Below, one piece after another: positions 1 through 56,578 of a stretch of 61,851 bases of DNA. The position numbers and the translations under genes are program-made. Each line of letters starts with the position of its first letter. The stretch's first letter is position 1. The stretch lies in the NCBI GenBank assembly GCA_002245135.1, contig NGBS01000038.1:1-61851 (forward strand), read 5' to 3'. The stretch is from Proteromonas lacertae (lineage: Eukaryota). The notes under the pieces were generated by a model that saw only the letters and a list, made by a program, of their open reading frames with translations, did no database searches and was not told where the DNA came from.

Positions 1-471
1 CCTATCTTAAGGGATAGAGGAATCGTCTATGACAATTACAAGGACACTGGCAAGTTGAACTTATTGAAATGTGAAGAGAACAAGAATGGTAAGCTTTATA
101 CAATCACTCAGTTCGTCGGGATTAAGCCAAAGATGTATGCTTACGAGAAGAGTGAAGCTTCTTCCGTCTACGTGGAATGTGATAGCCGTGCAAAGGGACT
201 CAATAAAGCCTTAAGAGAACAGAAGAACTTTGACGTCTACTTCAAGACTCTCTTCAACATGCTACCCATGGAGGATATGAATTGTAAGACCAGGAACTTC
301 CGTGTCCTCGATCAGCACATCTACACCGTAGAGACCACCAAGAGAGTCTTCACTCCCTTTGATGATAAGAGGTACTTTATCGATCACATTAGAACATTGC
401 CTTATGGGCACTACTCAATACTACCGAAGGATCAAGAGGATGATGATAATGATTTCAATGAGTTGTGGTGA
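1..471 (+). CDS. Protein-primed family B DNA polymerase (pPolB), C-terminal part
   Basis: Frame is open from base 1 (PILRDRGIVYDNYKDTGKLNLLKCE...). Motifs FVGIKPKMYAY, RAKGLNK and KRVFTPFDDKRYFIDHIRTLPYGHY are typical of the Maverick/adintovirus pPolB C-terminus. Confidence 0.88.
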   Translation, partial: PILRDRGIVYDNYKDTGKLNLLKCEENKNGKLYTITQFVGIKPKMYAYEKSEASSVYVECDSRAKGLNKALREQKNFDVYFKTLFNMLPMEDMNCKTRNFRVLDQHIYTVETTKRVFTPFDDKRYFIDHIRTLPYGHYSILPKDQEDDDNDFNELW

Positions 472-1665: not shown

Positions 1666-1832
1666 TAGAAAACATAGCTTCATCATCCCGAGATAACCAT
1701 CACTTCTAGATAGCTTCCAGGAGTACCCGTAGGAGATCGTCTCACAGATAGGTATAGAAAATAGCTTCCAAGAATCCCCGTAGGGAAGTAGACTCCGTAG
1801 GCAATAGACCCCGTTAGGAGGAATCCCGTAGG
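1666..1832 (+). repeat. Subterminal iterated motifs (CCGTAGG x4 plus CCGTTAGG; ATAGCTTC x3)
   Basis: CCGTAGG near 1727, 1778, 1795 and 1826 and CCGTTAGG near 1811; ATAGCTTC near 1674, 1709 and 1761. Confidence 0.8.
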
Positions 1833-1841
1833 AACCTTACG

Positions 1842-2044
1842 TAAATGGGACCCTGGGACATTGTCACAGAGTTCTAACGAGTGTTCTAGGAGTCCGTCCC
1901 CTTCTAGATTCAGAGTTGACCTTTACGGGAGCTTCATCGATTGCATCGATGAAGATCCCGTAAAAGTCAACTCTGAATCTAGAAAGGGACGGACCCCTAG
2001 AAAACTCGTTAGGACTCTGTGACAATGTCCCAGGGTCCCATTTA
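1842..2044. repeat. 203-nt imperfect palindrome (100-bp stem, 3-nt loop)
   Basis: 1842-1941 is the reverse complement of 1945-2044 with 6 mismatches (1873, 1883, 1891, 1901, 1921, 1931) and no indels; loop TGC. Confidence 0.97.
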
Positions 2045-2055
2045 TATACTATATA

Positions 2056-3654
2056 GAAATTGATGTGTAAATGATATATTGTGGTGAATATAAGTGTATA
2101 ATACTGAAGTATGGTGTTAATTTTATTTATATGGACAAAATAGATGAGGAAAGAGACAGATTTCAAATCCTTTTCAGAGTGGAACAACCTGATGGTGTTA
2201 TAAAGATGTAGAAAATAGTATAAATTTAAAAATGATGTGATTGAGCATAATTGTGATGATTTGTATAAATTGTGAATTTGTGTAAGATAAAATGAGTTTA
2301 AAGAAATAAAGATGTGATATTTGATTAATTTGAATGTTATTATTCCGATTATTTATATGATGATGTAAGATAAGTGAATATAGAAAAAGTGATTAACAAT
2401 AGTCTTGATTTGAAAGTTTCAAATATCTTAATATCTAAGAAGATGTAGTAGATTATTTGAGGATGATATTATCTCTAGATTTGTATATATTGAAAAACAA
2501 AAGTTATTATTTGATGAATTATTATTGTGATATTTTTATGTGAAATAGAAGTGTGATAATTTTGTATTTAAATGAAATACTCAATTGAAAGATTAATAGA
2601 AATGGTTATTGTTAATATTATAATATGATTTTATGTTTTATGATGATGGTTAAAAAGGAGGAGAAAGAAGAATAGAATGAAAGAAGTAGTTGATATAAAT
2701 AATCCTTACAGAATTGCCATTGAAATTAGTTTGAATAATATTTAATATAAGTTATGTAAGTGATTAATATATATATGGAAATTTGATTATGATTGGAATA
2801 TTTTATATTTATAATAGAGAATGATGAGAGAAAAGTTTTATATTTTATTTTATATAATTAATATTTTATGTGTGTTGTATATTTGTATAGAAACAATTAA
2901 TCTTTCATTATTCTTCTATTACAACATTTTTACATCTTACACACAAGAAAACAATACTAACAAATATACAATGAAGGTTTAATAGAGTTTTATTTAATTA
3001 ATTGTTTAAAATGTAAATATATATATATTCTAACTATTTTTTCTTTCTCCTCCTTTTTAACCATCATCATAAAACATAAAATCATATTATAATATTAACA
3101 ATAACCATTTCTATTAATCTTTCAATTGAGTATTTCATTTAAATACAAAATTATCACACTTCTATTTCACATAAAAATATCACAATAATAATTCATCAAA
3201 TAATAACTTTTGTTTTTCAATATATACAAATCTAGAGATAATATCATCCTCAAATAATCTACTACATCTTCTTAGATATTAAGATATTTGAAACTTTCAA
3301 ATCAAGACTATTGTTAATCACTTTTTCTATATTCACTTATCTTACATCATCATATAAATAATCGGAATAATAACATTCAAATTAATCAAATATCACATCT
3401 TTATTTCTTTAAACTCATTTTATCTTACACAAATTCACAATTTATACAAATCATCACAATTATGCTCAATCACATCATTTTTAAATTTATACTATTTTCT
3501 ACATCTTTATAACACCATCAGGTTGTTCCACTCTGAAAAGGATTTGAAATCTGTCTCTTTCCTCATCTATTTTGTCCATATAAATAAAATTAACACCATA
3601 CTTCAGTATTATACACTTATATTCACCACAATATATCATTTACACATCAATTTC
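2056..3654. repeat. Long inverted duplication: arms 2056-2669 and 3041-3654 (614 bp), 371-bp spacer
   Basis: GAAATTGATGTGTAAATG...GGAGGAGAAAGAA is reverse-complemented at 3041-3654. No differences seen by eye. AT-rich and non-coding. Confidence 0.95.
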
Positions 3655-3872
3655 ACAAAAATACTTTTATATTTATAAATATTTAGCCGTTTCTTTCATC
3701 ATTTTTCATTTTTTCTCTTTAAATCATCATTAAGCATAGATAATAATATAATAACATGAATTGATATATAGTATATTTTCTTTTAATATAACATTATTAG
3801 AATGACATTAATTGTTTATAAGAAAATATAAAAGAGAGAGTGATATATAAGAAAAAGATTGAAATAATAATC

Positions 3873-3990
3873 AGAATCGTTCATATCTACAATAAAGCAC
3901 CGCATCCCATCAGAACTGCGAAGTTAAGATTGTACGAGCTATGATAGTAGTACAGTGGGGGACTCTGTGCGAAGTCATAGTAACGATTCT
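3873..3990 (+). rRNA. 5S rRNA (divergent, single copy)
   Basis: Closing stem AGAATCGTT/AACGATTCT, CATA after stem I, conserved AAAGCACC-CATCCCATCAGAACT-CGAAGTTAAG and TAGTA...TGGGGGAC...GAAGTC. Length about 118 nt, T-run directly downstream, TATATAA about 25 nt upstream. Confidence 0.92.
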
Positions 3991-3994
3991 TTTT
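3990..3994 (+). terminator. RNA Pol III oligo-T terminator of the 5S gene
   Basis: TTTTT immediately after the 5S 3' stem, followed by further T-runs. Confidence 0.75.
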
Positions 3995-33525: not shown

Positions 33526-34998
33526 TTAAACTAACCCTTGTGATACTAAACCAGCAGGACCTCTGCTAGCCTCACTACCAATCTCCTGAGTATCTAAATC
33601 ATCAGTTGGCACACCATATTCATGCAATTTTTCTGTATAAGTTCTAACAATATCATTATGTGACTTAATCACTCTTATAACTGCATATTGTAGATCTTGG
33701 ATAATACTATCTCTTGAATATAATACTTCATCTAATTGTGTTGTTAATGCGTTGATTACTGCTGGATCTAAGTTAGCAGCTGCTAATGTATCTCTAAATT
33801 GAACTTCCTTTACATCATAATCATGTTGTAATTTTTCGATTCTTTTTTCTAACACCAAATTCTTTAAATCTGTCTTTCTTTCTACTGCTGCGACAGTATT
33901 TTCAAATCTATCATATAATTCATCTTTTTCTTTCTCTGTTTCATTATATAACTCAATTAGCTCGGCTTGAGCTTTTTCTAATGCAATTAAACGTTCTTCT
34001 GTTGCTTTTAACCTAGCCGTTACATTATGTAAAACTAATTTATCACCATTATAATTCTTTAAAGCTGCTTGTAGTTGTGTTACTTCTTTTAATGTTAATT
34101 TTAATGGTCCTGATAGTCTCTTATTCTCTTGAGCTATCTCATACATTAATTTTTGATTTGCTTCAGCCTTAGCTTCCAACTGTACGATAGCATCTTTCAA
34201 TGAGTTGATTAGATTTAAATTATCTTTGGTTATATCATTATAATAAGCTTTAATTTGATTAAATGCTTTTTCATGATTTTTCATAAGTTGATTAATATGT
34301 AAATTTTTTCGTTCTTCTATTTCATGAATCTCTACTTTTCTCTTCAATTCTAATTCATTACGAAGTGCTTCTAATTTATCAGAATACATTTTTTGCAACC
34401 CATTCAATGTATCGAAAAATTGGTCGTTTAATTTGGTTATATTCTTTAAATTATTTTCTTTTAAGTCTTTTACTTCTTGTTCATTTTGACATTGTCTTTC
34501 TATTAATTCTAATTTCAATCCAGCTTTCTGTCTTCTTAAATTATCTAATCTTTGTAAATGAGCTTCGTTCTCTTCATCTACATTGGTTGTTTTCTCTTTT
34601 ACTACTGTATTTTCATTATGTGTGTTTTCAAATTCCAAATGTTTCACCTTCTGTAAATAAACTCTGATTTCTACTTTGTGATTTCTTTCGCTTTCTTCCA
34701 TATCTCTGTCTAATTGTAAAGATTCCATTTTCAAATTGTTTAATTCTTCAGTTGTTATATTATAAAAGTTCTTTATAGTATCCTGTTAAAATGAAATAAA
34801 TTATAAAAATACTCTTTCAAGTTGTACATAATTTCTATCCTGTTGTGCTTTTAATAATTTCTGCTCTGAATCCTTGATAATAGCTTCTAATTCTTCTGAA
34901 GTCTTACTTTGAAATTTCTCATCAATTGGTGGAGGCTATAGAATTAAAATGAATCAATCTTATACTTCTTCCTTCTTTGGCTTCTTCTTTTTTGGCAT
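33526..34998 (-). CDS. GAS8: Dynein regulatory complex subunit 4 (GAS8/trypanin)
   Basis: MPKKKK start; RNYVQLERDTI, HKVEIRVYLQKVKHL, EIHEIEERKNLHINQLMKNHEKAF..IKAYYNDIT..NL.LI.SLK. Confidence 0.95.
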
Positions 34999-38347: not shown

Positions 38348-40549
38348 ATGAATATCTCAAGTCCTATGAATTTCAGTACATCAACCCCTAGGCATAACAA
38401 TACATCTACACCAACTGATAGTCCCTTTGTTTTTAGCTCAAAGAAAACTATAATCACAACTCCTTCATCTCCGAAGGTTGATAAGGAACAAGCCAAACAG
38501 CAATATGAGAAAATTATATTAGGTTGTAAAACCACATTTTTCAAACATAAAAAGCTGGATCCAAGAAAGTCACTCTTTCTACTAGAGAAGGAGAAGAGAT
38601 CACAGTTTTATCTAGACTTAGTATGTTTATACATATTTATTTATATTATAAATATACTCTATAGGTATGGTATTTGATTTTTCTAATTGTACTATTCATA
38701 TTTATTGCTGAATTACCTGTGCACCAACTTAATGAACAGAATTTAATGAGTTATGACACATTTGTTCAACAAAATATACAAGATCTGATACATGAAAAGT
38801 TTTTCAATGAAATTACCTTAAAATTCGAATATGACAAATGGATAAATACTTCACTATATGCAGGTGTATTTGACTGGGATTATACAAACATAAAATTTAT
38901 TGGTCCAATTAGATTTCGACAAATGCGATCGAAAGAAATAGATTGTGAAAAAAATACAATATCCAAAGATACTATGTGTTTAGCTCATATATCTGGTGAA
39001 GATGATCAAGATAAAGAACCATTTGGAAAAGGAAATAAATACAAATGGTACAATGACAATAACAAATTATATTCAACAATTTATGCATCTTCCAATCGTT
39101 TTTCTTTAATTCAATACTTAGGCAGAGGCGGTTACAGAATTGATGTACCAACAGATGATCCAGAAAAGGGAGAAAAAATGTTTACTGAAATAATTGACGA
39201 ATTTTTTACAGATCGAACAGCAATAATGGAAGTGTCTTTTTTACAATATTCTCCATCATCTCAACTATGGACTAACACAAGGCTGTTATTAGAAATATCC
39301 AATACATATAATTATCAATCATCATATAAGATAAGAACAGGTAAATTCATGTTGATGAGAAGTTTTGGAGATTTATTTACTCAATATATTGAAATTCCAC
39401 TGTTAATTATATTGTTGATTTGTTTGATAGTGAGAGAAGTATATAATAGTTATTATTTTATATTTTATTATTATTATTATTGTTATAGTCAAGAGAATTG
39501 ATTTCTAGTCCATTAGATTATTTCAAATCAGCTTGGAATTGGCTTGAAGTTACTCAAATCTTATTGATATTTACATTATTGATATTTTGGTCATTGTATA
39601 TTTATATATTTATATTTAAAAATAGATATGTAAGTCAATGTCACAAATTAGTTAAATCAATTAATGAAGATATCACTCAATTCCATCAAACTGATGATTT
39701 AATTTACTATTGGACAACTTTATACAATATTGCGTCATTCAGTGCATTGTTTTCTCCTATTAAAGTGTTTAAATATTTACGTCTTAGCTCAAGATTGAAT
39801 TTAATTTGGCATGCGATTAGTCTAGCTGCTGTTGATTTGGTTGCTTTTATTGTTATTTTTATGATTATTTTCTTTGGATTTATGTTCACAGGCAATATAG
39901 CATTTGGACCTAAATCTAAGAATTTTCAATCAATGTATAAATATTATATTATATTATAATTTCAATAGATTTACTTCATTTTTAGCTTGTTTCAATATGA
40001 TGATGGGTGATAGTGATCGTTTAGAATTAGTCAAAGCAAATCCAATGTTGGGAACAGTTTTTTATTTTATTTATTTATTATTTGTGTCTATTATATTAGT
40101 GAATGTGTTTATTGCTATTTTGAACGAATTCTTTACTGAGTCACAAGTATATTTTATTATATATATTTAATAGGAGGAAAATGAAAGAAGACAAAAATTA
40201 AGAAAGAAATTATTACATAATAACAATGGTAATGGAAATGGAAATGATGAAAATGGAAACAACGGAAACAACAAAAAAGAAAATAATAAAAATGAAGAAA
40301 AAGAAGATGAAAATAAAAACACTGAAGAAGAACTATCATTTATGGTAGAGTATGATGTGTTTGAAAGATTAAGTGAATATATAAACGGTTTTTGTGTGAT
40401 TGTTACACCACCATTAGATACATTAAGAGGCAAAGCAACTATTGCATTGAAAGACAGTAATATAGTGGAAATAGTGGATGAAAAATGGTTGAAAGCAGAG
40501 AGAAAGAGATTACATCGAATATATAAGAAATATGTTTATTTCTATATGT

Positions 40550-51400: not shown

Positions 51401-53161
51401 GGAGTTGATGAAAATTCAGGGGGGGGGAAATAAGAGTGAAATGAATTATTCAGAACATAAATCTAAGAGTGTTAAAATATCAGAAAGTGTTTCTCCTCTT
51501 CAGTTAATATCACCACCCTCTAGAAACAGTATATATATATATATATATATAATGAAATAGGTTTTGATTATGTGAAACGTATATTTGATATAGGTAAAAA
51601 ATCTCCCAGTTTTATATATAATGAAAGATTGATAGAAATTGATGAAAGTATAAAATTATTTCAATATCCAAGCCATAAAATATTGGTGAGAGATTATTAT
51701 CCACAATTTTGGAAAAGAATAGAATATAATATAATTTATAATTGTTTTTATCGGTATAGAAAAAATGAATTTGTTTTAAAGAAGTTATTTAAATATATAA
51801 ATGTAAATGTTGATCCTTCAATTAATGAAGATGATTTACATAAAATCGTTGAAAGAGAGAAAGAAAGATTAAAAAAACTAATCAAATGTAAACCTACTAA
51901 AAATGAAATTAATAGTTACTATTTACTGAGAGGTGAACCAGGATGTGGAAAATCCACATTTTTAGTTTATTTTATCTTAAAAGTTATTCAGTTGAAAGAA
52001 AAATTAGGTATTAATTTAGGTTTAACATATTACAAAAGTTCAAAGAAAGAAGATGGAAGTCCAGATTATCCTGTTATCTATAATTTGATTGGAAAATATT
52101 TAGAAGAAAATATAATGGATGAAGATATAATTATATGTGATTCATATGATATTCCTGAAAATATATTCAGATTAAAAGGTATAGTTGTAAATGTCAGTTC
52201 TCCAGATAATAAAAACTATAAAAATATAAAAGATTTTAAGGGTGGTAATAAAGTATATTTCTATTTGGATATTTGTAATGAAAAAGAGATAAAAATAAGG
52301 AAAGAAAATTGTTTACCTGAAGATTTAGGAAATGCAATTGATGATAATCTTATTTCTTTATACAATCGAGTACCAAGACATTTATATTTTGCAGCTATAT
52401 ATAAAGCATATTATAAAGATAGAAATTATTGGGATGAAATTTATACAAACTGTATTAAAACAACTGTGAATACTCTTGGTTATTTTAATTTTATAAAGAA
52501 ATATCTCTTTCCATGTGAAAGAGGTAAAGAATCAAATTTGGAAAATGATATTGAATTAAATGTTGATCGATTAGATTCACATTTATCACATTATATTGTA
52601 AAATACAAAATATTAGATTATGAATCAATTGATAAAGTTCAATTAGAATTTATCTCTAAAGAAGTATTTAAGTATGTTTATTTCTGTACAAGTCACAGAT
52701 GTAGTAAAAGAGAATTTGAAATTATGAAGGATTTTTTCAAGAATAAAATACAATCAGATAAAAATCATCCTCTATATAAACTATTATTCAATGAATTAGT
52801 GTGGTATTCAATTATGTATAATGCAAAATGGAAAAATAATGTGATTAAGTTTAATAATATTCAGATGAATATATTTAATAAATATTTTCAAAATACTACA
52901 ACATCAATAGGATGTGGAGAAGGTAATTATTATATTGGTCAATTTGATATTGATATAGATTATGATATATGTTATGTTATTAATAATGTTATTGTATTTC
53001 CATTTTATTATGATGTAGATAAAATAATGAAAAATGAAAAATTTAAACAATATTTAGAAGATTATTCAAAAGATATTCAATGTAGTTTATATCCTAAAAT
53101 ATTTACAATTGAAGATTTACATAAACTTGATAAGAATGTAGTTAATGATTTGCATAAATAA
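48489..53161 (+). CDS. Crinkler/RHS-type protein with tandem P-loop NTPase(+REase) units
   Basis: Walker A GNYGIGKT..YGGIPG, REase-like SNFESVDAI..GIQVTVSDHHPIK, Zn-ribbon CPYC..CGKC, second Walker A GEPGCGKST..VSSP..NRVPR. The ORFs join through two introns (about 49689-49729 and 51529-51560) and two homopolymer frameshifts (about 49115 and G9 at 51419-51427). Confidence 0.72.
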
Positions 53162-53331
53162 TGTTAAGATATATTAACCTATGATATGATAATTACTTAT
53201 ACAATTTAGTAATTAACCTTGATATGCACAAGGCTCAGTATAGGATCAACTTCGATAAGCAACTCTTTGTAGACTAGATGATTAACCCCATCAACAACAA
53301 TGAACTTAAGATTATAATACTTAGTAGAATG

Positions 53332-53919
53332 TTAGTAAGCTAGAGATCGAAGAACTACTTTATAAAGAGACTGTAACTCCTTCGACACGTAGAACTTCCT
53401 TACCTTGATTATCTTAATTAAACATTGTATGTTCCTTAGGTGGCGTTGCTTTAGCTTATTCATCTTGAAGATGCCTGAGGAGTTAGATCCACCACACAAG
53501 ACAAGGAGCCTTATCAGTTGATTCCGGAGCAAGTAGGTTAAGTCATCATCATAGGATCGTTTCATCAGTTCATCATACTCTGGGATGTCGATTGCACGTA
53601 CTGACGGTGGATTCTCTTGGAGCAGTTCCTTGATCTCATTAACTAGGTTATTCATGGAATCGTAGACATCTCCTTGATCAGCACTGTTGTAGTTCGTGAT
53701 GGAGTGTCGGAGATATCTTCTCTTCTTAAAGTCTCGGAGGTAGTGATTATCAATGACATGCTGATTGCCAGGACTTCTCTTGAAGTGATCACGGATCGCT
53801 GATAAGGCTTCAAAGAGTTCTTGTTGATGGAGGTGCTGTTGCTTAAAAGTCCCAAACATACTAGGAGAGATAGATAGACCGAAGAAGTTAAGGATTACAA
53901 CTGTAAGCACTTGTACCAC
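53332..53919 (-). CDS. Hypothetical protein (frame continues past TAA to the junction at 53219)
   Basis: 195-aa ORF; after TAA the frame reads HSTKYYNLKFIVVDGVNHLVYKELLIEVDPILSLVHIK. Confidence 0.5.
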   Translation of the reverse strand: MVQVLTVVILNFFGLSISPSMFGTFKQQHLHQQELFEALSAIRDHFKRSPGNQHVIDNHYLRDFKKRRYLRHSITNYNSADQGDVYDSMNNLVNEIKELLQENPPSVRAIDIPEYDELMKRSYDDDLTYLLRNQLIRLLVLCGGSNSSGIFKMNKLKQRHLRNIQCLIKIIKVRKFYVSKELQSLYKVVLRSLAY

Positions 53920-54641
53920 TCAGAAGGAGAAGGCTTTACCATCTTGATCTTACCGTGAGAATGATTAAAGGGGAACTCATCATCAGCTTCAACATCGTCA
54001 GCATCTTCCTCCGACACATAGTCTGGATCAACCTCAAGGATTGGAATCTCATCATCATCATCGGAGGAGGAGGACTCGTGTTCACGGCTCTTGGAAGTCA
54101 CCTTACGGTATTGATTATATAGTCTAGCATAGTAACCAACATCATCCTCTTCCTCCTCTTTGGAATCACCTTTACCTCGTCCAAGATAGTTAACTACTGC
54201 GGCCCATACTTGTGGACTCCTCATTATATCCTTGACATTCTCTCCAACTGGAAGCTTTCCCTTTATATAATCCACTGCCTGATGAAGATTTGATGGAGCT
54301 GACTTACCATCAGATTCGGAACTCCTTTTGAAGTCAGGAATCTCAACACCGGCTTTATCAGCATGCTCTCGTATCAATTGAAAGGATGGGTTGTCCTTCT
54401 CAGCGATGTTAGCAACATCCCATGATAGTTGACGTAGAATACTTCTGGTCTCCTCGGAAGCTTCCTTTGTTAAGCTCATCACCTCCTTATACTTATTAGC
54501 CAGATCGATGATTGTTTTGTCTAAACGAGAAGATGTTGACCTGGGAGTCTTAGTTGATCTCCTTGCTAGTTCAGCATTTCGGAGAAGTACTTTTATAAAT
54601 ACACCATCTATTATCAAATCAAAGAAATTATTCTCATCCAA
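53895..54641 (-). CDS. Hypothetical protein with acidic C-terminus
   Basis: 248-codon intronless ORF (TTG start in the track), overlapping the next ORF by 25 nt. Confidence 0.55.
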   Translation of the reverse strand: MDENNFFDLIIDGVFIKVLLRNAELARRSTKTPRSTSSRLDKTIIDLANKYKEVMSLTKEASEETRSILRQLSWDVANIAEKDNPSFQLIREHADKAGVEIPDFKRSSESDGKSAPSNLHQAVDYIKGKLPVGENVKDIMRSPQVWAAVVNYLGRGKGDSKEEEEDDVGYYARLYNQYRKVTSKSREHESSSSDDDDEIPILEVDPDYVSEEDADDVEADDEFPFNHSHGKIKMVKPSPSEWYKCLQL

Positions 54642-55591
54642 AATATAACAGACAAAATTTTTTGACTTTTGGAGGATGTTAAACTGGAATATATAACTCA
54701 GAATTCATTTCGAAATTAGAATCTTTATTATAAACTATTAATATGTTTTCTAAATAGTTCTTCTAATTTATAATAAACTTCTAAATAACTATTATTATTT
54801 TTATTTTCACTATTTTCACTTTTCTTTATTAAACCATTCAATCCAATATCTGGAATTAATACATATTCATCTACTTTAACATATTTTAATAATACTTCAT
54901 ATACATAACTTTTATTAGATATATATAACATTATTTCTTTCTTTTTATTAGATGAAGAAACAGTGTTAGATATATTGAATGGAGATTTTGATTTAGGAAG
55001 TGGAAATACAATGGAATTCCATTTTATACAAGTCAATAAAGGCAAATACTAAATCGAATATTTCTGTTATATTTTCCTTCAAAGATTGAGTTCCATGTAT
55101 AACAGTAAAACTGATATTACTGTGAAATAAAATTATCAGCTTAACAAATACAAAAACAACATTAAGTTAAGGTTTGAATCAGAAAGTGATAAAAACTTTA
55201 GATGGCACAGTTTGTGAGGGTTTTGAAAATGAAGTTAAATTGTGAGTTAAATATGAAAAAGTAGTAATACAGATAGGTAAAACAGTACAGTATTACAGCA
55301 GCAGATATAAGAAACAGTTCCAGGTGTTATTAAATTGGACAAAACAGGATATTACTTTGCCCTAACTGTAAAAAGTGGAACTAAAATTCCAACTATCCAA
55401 CTAATTAAAGAGAAAGGTATAAAAGTATTTATTGCTATAAATGAGAAATCAGCTATATTTATATTAAATTTAGAAACAATGCATGGTGATGGTAAGTTGT
55501 ATTGCTTATAATAATATTTATTATACAGTTTACTGGTTAATTACTAAATTGTATAAGTAATTATCATATCATAGGTTAATATATCTTAACA

Positions 55592-56578
55592 TTATTTATG
55601 CAAATCATTAACTACATTCTTATCAAGTTTATGTAAATCTTCAATTGTAAATATTTTAGGATATAAACTACATTGAATATCTTTTGAATAATCTTCTAAA
55701 TATTGTTTAAATTTTTCATTTTTCATTATTTTATCTACATCATAATAAAATGGAAATACAATAACATTATTAATAACATAACATATATCATAATCTATAT
55801 CAATATCAAATTGACCAATATAATAATTACCTTCTCCACATCCTATTGATGTTGTAGTATTTTGAAAATATTTATTAAATATATTCATCTGAATATTATT
55901 AAACTTAATCACATTATTTTTCCATTTTGCATTATACATAATTGAATACCACACTAATTCATTGAATAATAGTTTATATAGAGGATGATTTTTATCTGAT
56001 TGTATTTTATTCTTGAAAAAATCCTTCATAATTTCAAATTCTCTTTTACTACATCTGTGACTTGTACAGAAATAAACATACTTAAATACTTCTTTAGAGA
56101 TAAATTCTAATTGAACTTTATCAATTGATTCATAATCTAATATTTTGTATTTTACAATATAATGTGATAAATGTGAATCTAATCGATCAACATTTAATTC
56201 AATATCATTTTCCAAATTTGATTCTTTACCTCTTTCACATGGAAAGAGATATTTCTTTATAAAATTAAAATAACCAAGAGTATTCACAGTTGTTTTAATA
56301 CAGTTTGTATAAATTTCATCCCAATAATTTCTATCTTTATAATATGCTTTATATATAGCTGCAAAATATAAATGTCTTGGTACTCGATTGTATAAAGAAA
56401 TAAGATTATCATCAATTGCATTTCCTAAATCTTCAGGTAAACAATTTTCTTTCCTTATTTTTATCTCTTTTTCATTACAAATATATAATAATAGTAAATA
56501 AAGGTTCTGGCACACCGAGCCGTATGACTCGGGCTCCTGGCACACCAAACCAAATTTTTTAAAATATTCTAATATCAT
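55592..56578 (-). pseudogene. Chimeric partial copy of the CR/RHS gene
   Basis: An unrelated N-terminus of about 32 aa is fused in frame to the duplicated C-terminal part; Walker A is missing. Confidence 0.7.
56493..56551 (+). other. Putative element terminus: AGTAAATAAAGG followed by CTGGCACACC direct repeats around a small hairpin
   Basis: CTGGCACACC at 56507-56516 and 56537-56546 flanks GAGCC-N10-GGCTC. The start resembles the reverse complement of the 2050 end (AGTATATAAATGG). Confidence 0.55.

Follow-up and report, generated by a model that had tools for sequence, protein, structure and literature searches.

What kind of DNA end, if any, was marked by a long imperfect hairpin near the start of this protist contig, and were the mismatches in its stem placed there by selection? 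The hairpin stood at the boundary between GC-rich and AT-rich DNA in the window, i.e., the whole stretch of 61,851 nucleotides that was analysed. The replication and protection of linear ends in Polintons, virophages and their relatives are still largely models on paper. The first report of palindromes at the ends of such elements is a 2026 preprint, in which most of the elements concerned lacked a protein-primed polymerase (bioRxiv 10.64898/2026.07.28.741278). The most fitting reading of the present hairpin is that it forms the palindromic end of a Polinton-like element with a polymerase gene, which would make it a variant of this recently described kind. If this is true, the occurrence of a polymerase and a long imperfect terminal hairpin in one element would suggest that both end-replication strategies can coexist, and such an element would be a concrete substrate for testing these strategies. 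The claim of phased mismatches matters only if the pattern recurs in other copies; in one copy it is a curiosity.

Composition and gene content of the GC-rich block

Positions 1-2044 had 42-47% GC, and nearly all of the remaining window had 21-30%. Namely, the GC fraction was 0.425 at 1-1841, 0.473 in the hairpin and 0.212 at 2045-3776. The drop was located at 2044/2045, which was the outer edge of the palindrome (0.45 at 1950-2049 and 0.24 at 2050-2149). Moreover, the three ORFs of this foreign block had GC3 values of 0.49-0.55, compared with 0.14-0.17 in four host genes. The features of the block, the hairpin and the adjoining flank are listed in Table 1.

Table 1. Positions of the features in and next to the foreign block (numbering of the window; mismatches are given as pairs of stem positions)
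Feature	Position	Strand	Details
Putative C-terminal end of a protein-primed DNA polymerase gene	1..471	+	Frame open at window start; 156 codons; GC3 0.55
Orphan ORF, 152 aa	567..1025	+	GC3 0.51
Acidic, serine-rich ORF, 135 aa	1173..1580	+	GC3 0.49
Subterminal short direct repeats	1710..1832	+	Just inside the palindrome
Left (inner) palindrome arm	1842..1941		With the six mismatch positions
Centre/loop	1942..1944		TGC
Right (outer) palindrome arm	1945..2044		Ends at 2044, the outermost base of the foreign block
Mismatch 1	1873.2013		T.G
Mismatch 2	1883.2003		G.A
Mismatch 3	1891.1995		A.C
Mismatch 4	1901.1985		C.A
Mismatch 5	1921.1965		C.A
Mismatch 6	1931.1955		G.A
Flank outside the putative element	2045..3654		21% GC; with a perfect inverted repeat

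The ORF that was open at the window start had five matches in the protein database at E<=0.01. The best three of them were 43-45% identical to it, and three of the five carried PF03175, including two of the proteins matched at 43-45% identity. It aligned to residues 1528-1667 of the 1673-residue protein P0002 (the last ~140) and to residues 513-614 of the 614-residue protein P0005 (the last ~100). The PF03175 domain of P0002 was confirmed, and the window fragment alone had no Pfam match. Judging from these alignments, we identified the ORF as the probable C-terminus of a PF03175-bearing protein-primed polymerase, the gene for which lay 1.4 kb inward of the palindrome. Additionally, a distant relative of this polymerase, P0004 (35% identity to the window fragment), had an Endonuclease VII domain (PF02945) in its N-terminal part.

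Among 590 pattern matches for the polymerase C-terminus in metagenome contigs, two loci were confirmed (L001 4768-5145 and L002 583-960). Their polymerase C-termini were 30% identical to that of the window, the contigs had 14-27% GC, and no long near-perfect hairpin was found in the parts of the two contigs that were analysed. At this identity they were considered too distant and were set aside. The viral contigs were searched both with the single polymerase protein and with an alignment, and no polymerase relative was found in them.

The 152-aa ORF had no Pfam or PHROG family and no match in 1.84 billion representative proteins. Its Atlas scores were at most 0.85, none of them usable, and its AlphaFold2 single-sequence model was equally unusable (pLDDT 39.6). 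The acidic, serine-rich ORF likewise belonged to no Pfam or PHROG family. Between this last ORF and the palindrome there was a non-coding stretch of 260 nt with direct repeats. It included a pair of 24-nt direct repeats (1710-1733 and 1761-1784, 88% identity) and a tandem repeat of period 17 (1776-1814). Motifs of the CCCGTAGG type were located at 1726, 1777, 1794 and 1825, so that four of the six window matches (<=1 mismatch) fell inside 107 nt. The rve integrase domain was absent from the 33 window ORFs scanned against Pfam, and the ORFs past 2044 were host genes. No gene for an HUH nicking protein (Rep/NS1) was seen in positions 1-2044, and the remainder of the element was outside the window, upstream of position 1.

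Structure of the hairpin

A repeat search and a base-by-base comparison gave a palindrome of 203 bases, with two arms of 100 nt each that were 94% complementary and an asymmetric 3-nt loop. The stem contained no indels. Its basal 31 bp were perfect, successive mismatches were separated by 10, 8, 10, 20 and 10 nt, and the last of them was 11 nt from the loop. The initial annotation had given the hairpin coordinates, the six mismatch positions, their gaps, the lack of indels and the perfect base, and all of these were correct. From base to loop, the perfect paired runs measured 31, 9, 7, 9, 19, 9 and 10 bp. Complementarity of the arms ended abruptly at 1841/2045, and both tips of the palindrome were TA (TAAAT...ATTTA). 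When folded as single-stranded DNA, the palindrome formed one long stem of -107.9 kcal/mol, compared with -23.1 +/- 3.6 kcal/mol for shuffled sequences (z = -23.3).

All six mismatches had G or C in one arm and A or T in the other, and they represented four transitions and two G/T transversions. Therefore, they were of the kind expected from ordinary mutation. The set of true mismatches depended on the strand. On the plus strand there were five of them and one T.G wobble (1873.2013), which was kept paired in folding, and on the minus strand there were three true mismatches and three G.T wobbles.

We found no further copy of the hairpin. Within the 61.8-kb window the two matches to a hairpin arm were the two arms themselves, and the hairpin DNA pattern had 0 matches in viral contigs and 0 in prokaryote genome contigs. 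A search of the protein database with the hairpin read as a 73-aa stop-free frame gave no candidate, and no second copy was seen in the metagenome collection.

Spacing of the mismatches

The initial annotation had considered the near-10-nt regularity too strong for random decay and had suggested a permutation test. We placed six mismatches randomly in the 100 stem positions 200,000 times. At a period of 10.0 the Rayleigh concentration was R=0.83 (p=0.007), the best period in the range 9.5-11.5 was 9.7 (p=0.005), and for the best of any period from 3 to 30 the p-value was 0.044. Thus, the spacing was significant at period 10 and with any period allowed, with p about 0.005-0.04 depending on the freedom given to the period. 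However, it was not significant at 10.5 bp, the repeat of B-DNA (p=0.26), or at 11 bp, the repeat of A-form RNA (p=0.94), and the claim of non-randomness rested on six points in one copy with a period chosen post hoc. At the nucleosomal period of 10.17 the values were R=0.73 and p=0.029. The statistic used earlier, at least four of the five gaps being a multiple of 10, had p=1.4e-4 and was picked after seeing the data; with any modulus from 5 to 15 allowed it had p=0.0075. Under random placement, a mismatch-free stem base of 31 bp or more had p=0.10 and a smallest gap of at least 8 had p=0.07. With only the three true mismatches of the minus strand, p was 0.13.

The mismatches had also been proposed to lie on one face of the helix. 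This was true only at exactly 10.0 bp/turn, where all six fell within 72 degrees. The range widened to 172 degrees (343 to 171) at 10.5 bp/turn and to 262 degrees at 11 bp/turn. The one-face reading was therefore geometrically unsupported, since the periodicity failed at the real helical repeats of 10.5 and 11 bp. Two functional suggestions made together with it were likewise unsupported. For the destabilisation of a cruciform, mismatches would be expected close to the centre, whereas the 10 bp beside the loop were perfect. As to dsRNA sensing or processing, no Rfam family was found on the hairpin at E<=1; the sole match in 1500-2300 was a 19.9-bit chance match at 1500-1572.

A 10-nt repeat within the arm was ruled out as the source of the spacing. 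The sequence of the arm was not itself periodic at 10 nt (autocorrelation at lag 10, z=0.19), and the spacing was thus not inherited from a repeat. Taken together, the mismatches were spaced with a genuine regularity that reached nominal significance, but we could not demonstrate that it exceeds chance; the ten-base interval is a single-copy statistical oddity that does not fit helical geometry. In a literature search on hairpin mismatches, helical periodicity and terminal palindromes, nothing relevant was found.

The flank and the inverted duplications

The host DNA past 2044 encoded ordinary eukaryotic proteins (TSP1/tetraspanin, heavy-metal P-type ATPase, Tub, GAS/DRC4, polycystin, RyR and RRM). 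Twelve nucleotides past the hairpin there began a perfect 617-nt inverted repeat (2056-2672 / 3038-3654) with 365 nt between its arms. Its left arm was nearly free of C on the plus strand (A244 T232 G118 C23), and the GC skew reached +1.0. No ORF was found in the repeat, and it did not resemble the foreign blocks even with C collapsed to T. The possibility that it was a C-to-T hypermutated part of the element was rejected, with reduced-alphabet alignment scores within the shuffled range.

A second foreign-looking block was located at 53219-54640. It had 41% GC and GC3 values of 0.38-0.47, and it was without a terminal hairpin. Its two minus-strand ORFs (53332-53919 and 53895-54641) had no family in Pfam or PHROGs, no homologue and no usable Atlas match. 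Another perfect inverted repeat, of 950 nt, was found at 52269-53218 / 55535-56484, and its left arm ended exactly where the second block started (53219). This repeat spanned the 3' part of the plus-strand ORF 51572-53161 and most of the minus-strand ORF 55592-56578. The two ORFs looked like convergent paralogues with identical 3' parts, and the repeat looked like the product of a recent inverted duplication, gene conversion or an assembly artefact. Both GC-rich blocks (1-2044 and 53219-54640) thus adjoined perfect inverted duplications, and the junction between the hairpin and the host DNA may be an assembly join.

Origin of the palindrome

We propose, with a probability of about 0.55, that an element of the Polinton-like (or linear-plasmid-like) type ended in this hairpin as a snap-back palindrome and that the mismatches in it were probably neutral GC-to-AT changes rather than selected helical marks. 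The 203 bp of the palindrome likely formed the tip of a foreign element that bears the polymerase gene, at its contact with AT-rich protist DNA. We infer that position 2044 was the true end of the molecule. Evidence for the terminal position came from both sides of the hairpin, with the polymerase end, two orphan ORFs and the subterminal repeats inside and the break in composition outside; the window covered one end and one copy of the element.

According to this proposal, either excision or strand displacement during replication by the element's own polymerase would expose the end as a single strand. Its terminal 203 nt could then fold into the 100-bp hairpin, the perfect 31-bp base of which would set the 3' end on a fully paired template. 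In this form the hairpin might serve to protect the terminus, to restore a double-stranded origin, or to prime or mend the synthesis of the terminal bases. One GC-to-AT change per site in a once-perfect palindrome would account for all six mismatches, and the ~10-nt spacing would be chance or a weak by-product of constraint. The differences between the arms would persist because hairpin copying does not homogenise the arms. Since the adjoining 617-nt repeat was 100% identical, the 6% divergence of the arms had probably not built up in place over the same time, and it was more likely that this divergence arrived together with the element.

Several observations stood against the terminal snap-back reading. 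Terminal palindromes went preferentially with elements that lack a protein-primed polymerase (bioRxiv 10.64898/2026.07.28.741278), and bidnaviruses, which combine parvovirus genes with a Polinton-derived polymerase, had terminal repeats that did not form hairpins (PMC4061559). A protein-primed element has no obvious need of a hairpin primer. The 617-nt repeat was perfect, whereas the hairpin arms differed by 6%, and the host junction may have been joined during assembly, with both GC-rich blocks touching perfect inverted duplications. Additionally, the spacing was nominally significant and spoke against chance, which was an uncomfortable account of it given p=0.007 at period 10 and p=0.044 with any period.

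Two other explanations dealt with the spacing directly. The mismatches might have been selected about one helical turn apart so as to mark a side of the stem for an end-binding protein, such as the terminal protein/polymerase, an integrase or a structure-specific nuclease, or to tune cruciform or dsRNA behaviour. This appeared unlikely. The low p-values at period 10 (0.007) and in the range 9.5-11.5 (0.005), four of five gaps that were exact multiples of 10, the absence of any pair closer than 8 nt (p=0.07) and an arm without periodicity of its own all agreed with selection. However, the best period of 9.7-10.0 corresponded to no physical helical repeat, the p-value rose to 0.044 when any period was allowed and to 0.26 and 0.94 at 10.5 and 11 bp, and the pattern consisted of six points noticed post hoc in a single copy. 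Moreover, the true mismatches changed with the strand (five on plus and three on minus, p=0.13 for the three), their substitution types were those of ordinary mutation, and the perfect 10 bp beside the loop offered no hindrance to cruciform extrusion. Members of the Endonuclease VII family cut cruciforms and mismatches, and the PF02945 domain of P0004 was in favour of selection in this respect, but as a lead only, since the N-terminus of the window polymerase was outside the window. The boldest form of the idea was that a Polinton-like protist virus ends in a 203-nt hairpin with mismatches deliberately phased by one turn, as a hybrid protein-primed/hairpin-primed end in which these mismatches would be a recognition track for the virus's own end-binding protein or structure-specific nuclease; this we considered very doubtful. 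It was similarly improbable that a nucleosome centred on the palindrome had imposed a substitution rate with a period of ~10.2 bp and had left neutral changes at regular rotational positions. Measured from the centre of the palindrome, the mismatches were at 12, 22, 42, 52, 60 and 70 bp, all inside a 147-bp footprint, with the perfect stem base outside it, and at 10.17 bp/turn all six were within 0.18 turn of whole turns (R=0.73, p=0.029). Nevertheless, the fit was poorer than at period 9.7-10, and reported effects of nucleosomal periodicity are small compared with a six-for-six pattern. The changes would also have had to occur while the element was packed in host chromatin, and the perfect 617-nt repeat suggested recent events. 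A precedent in favour of the nucleosome was the periodic divergence across nucleosomal DNA reported in Drosophila (PMC4081404).

The remaining explanations concerned the palindrome itself. As a self-contained 203-bp unit consisting almost wholly of two inverted arms, it could be a separate non-autonomous transposon of the fold-back or MITE type that happened to lie beside the polymerase block rather than the element's own end. A TA target duplication could be concealed in the terminal TA of both arms, although this TA was indistinguishable from the palindrome itself. However, the hairpin GC of 0.47 fitted the foreign block and not the host, the palindrome was exactly at the break in composition, and no other copy was present in 61.8 kb. 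A free-standing fold-back transposon was quite unlikely because of this element-like composition, the boundary position and the lack of another copy in the window. We assigned an equally low chance to the possibility that fold-back synthesis from a broken end of DNA produced the palindrome or the host junction, whether during capture in the cell, library preparation or assembly. Chimeras of amplification or long-read sequencing are typically inverted, and the 617-nt and 950-nt duplications, both 100% identical, adjoined the two GC-rich blocks, one beginning 12 nt past the hairpin and the other ending where the second block started (53219). On the other hand, a fresh fold-back would be a perfect palindrome, and here 6 of 100 positions differed beside repeats of 100% identity. 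The palindrome was also bounded and internal, 1.8 kb from the window start. If the junction alone were artefactual, position 2044 would still most simply be the true end of the molecule, and the palindrome would stay terminal. The mismatches had already been put forward in the initial annotation as an argument against a simple fold-back artefact; we agree, and the sharp bounds of the palindrome and its element-like composition also speak against one. A hairpin telomere or concatemer junction was excluded, with inverted symmetry that stopped at 1841/2045 and flanks of 42% and 21% GC.

Comparison with known terminal structures

In classical Polintons the ends consist of simple TIRs with no self-complementary tip, and the present end differed from them in having one. 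Polintons are on record in amoebozoan genomes (PMC3671162), and no paper that deals with both dictyostelids and Polintons was found. The protein-primed family-B polymerase gene near the element end, the small unknown ORFs between this gene and the end, and the residence in protist nuclear DNA were all shared with Polinton/Maverick elements and Polinton-like viruses. In the window this likeness consisted of the polymerase C-terminus; an integrase, genes for a double jelly-roll capsid, penton, packaging ATPase and protease, and a TIR pair with a target duplication of 5-6 bp were not seen in it.

The imperfect terminal palindromes of parvoviruses are bounded and 100-250 nt long, and their paired 3' end primes synthesis. 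Terminal mismatches in these viruses are inherited unrepaired, and hairpin copying does not homogenise the arms. The present end resembled such rolling-hairpin ends in being a bounded, imperfect terminal palindrome with a 3' end that was base-paired in the predicted fold (31-bp base). Parvoviruses, however, have small ssDNA genomes, encode the nicking protein Rep/NS1 and lack their own polymerase, whereas the foreign block carried a putative polymerase gene. The closed telomeres of the poxvirus or protelomerase type are imperfect hairpins of ~100 nt, and the duplex copy of such a hairpin is an imperfect palindrome. The imperfectly paired ~100-nt hairpin of the window was similar in this respect. 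Unlike the copy of a telomere junction, which is flanked on both sides by inverted genome copies, it had unrelated flanks. It also differed from these telomeres in its asymmetric 3-nt TGC centre and in irregularities that were mismatches and not extrahelical bases.

The closest parallel came from Halocafeteria. In the preprint (bioRxiv 10.64898/2026.07.28.741278), palindromes were described at the TIR extremities, beside target-site duplications, of endogenous virophages and of one subtype of Polinton-like virus in Halocafeteria. A hairpin-priming model was proposed there. The element in the window shared with the virophages and the Polinton-like virus of Halocafeteria seosinensis the position of the palindrome at the extremity beside host DNA (here 2044/2045), the character of a GC-deviant, virus-like insertion in a protist genome, and a snap-back hairpin that was proposed to prime replication. 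It differed in the length of the palindrome (203 nt here and 52 nt in the example from that species) and, unlike most of the palindrome-bearing elements there, it had a protein-primed polymerase. The association of palindromes mainly with elements that lack this polymerase was presented as a tendency and not as a rule. The accessible part of the report contained nothing on mismatch spacing.

Other features of the window

A lone 5S rRNA gene was found at 3873-3991 on the plus strand (92.7 bits), followed by a T-run, and no tRNA gene was found in the 61.8-kb window. The minus-strand gene at 33526-34734 encoded a ciliary protein of the GAS/DRC4 type (PF13851, E=6e-56), and the host could therefore probably build flagella or cilia, which spoke against a dictyostelid as the host. 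Finally, a polycystin domain and a polycystin channel domain were encoded on the plus strand by overlapping ORFs in different frames (38674-39501 and 39498-39959); the two belong to a single gene, interrupted either by a frameshift, by a short intron or by an error in sequencing.
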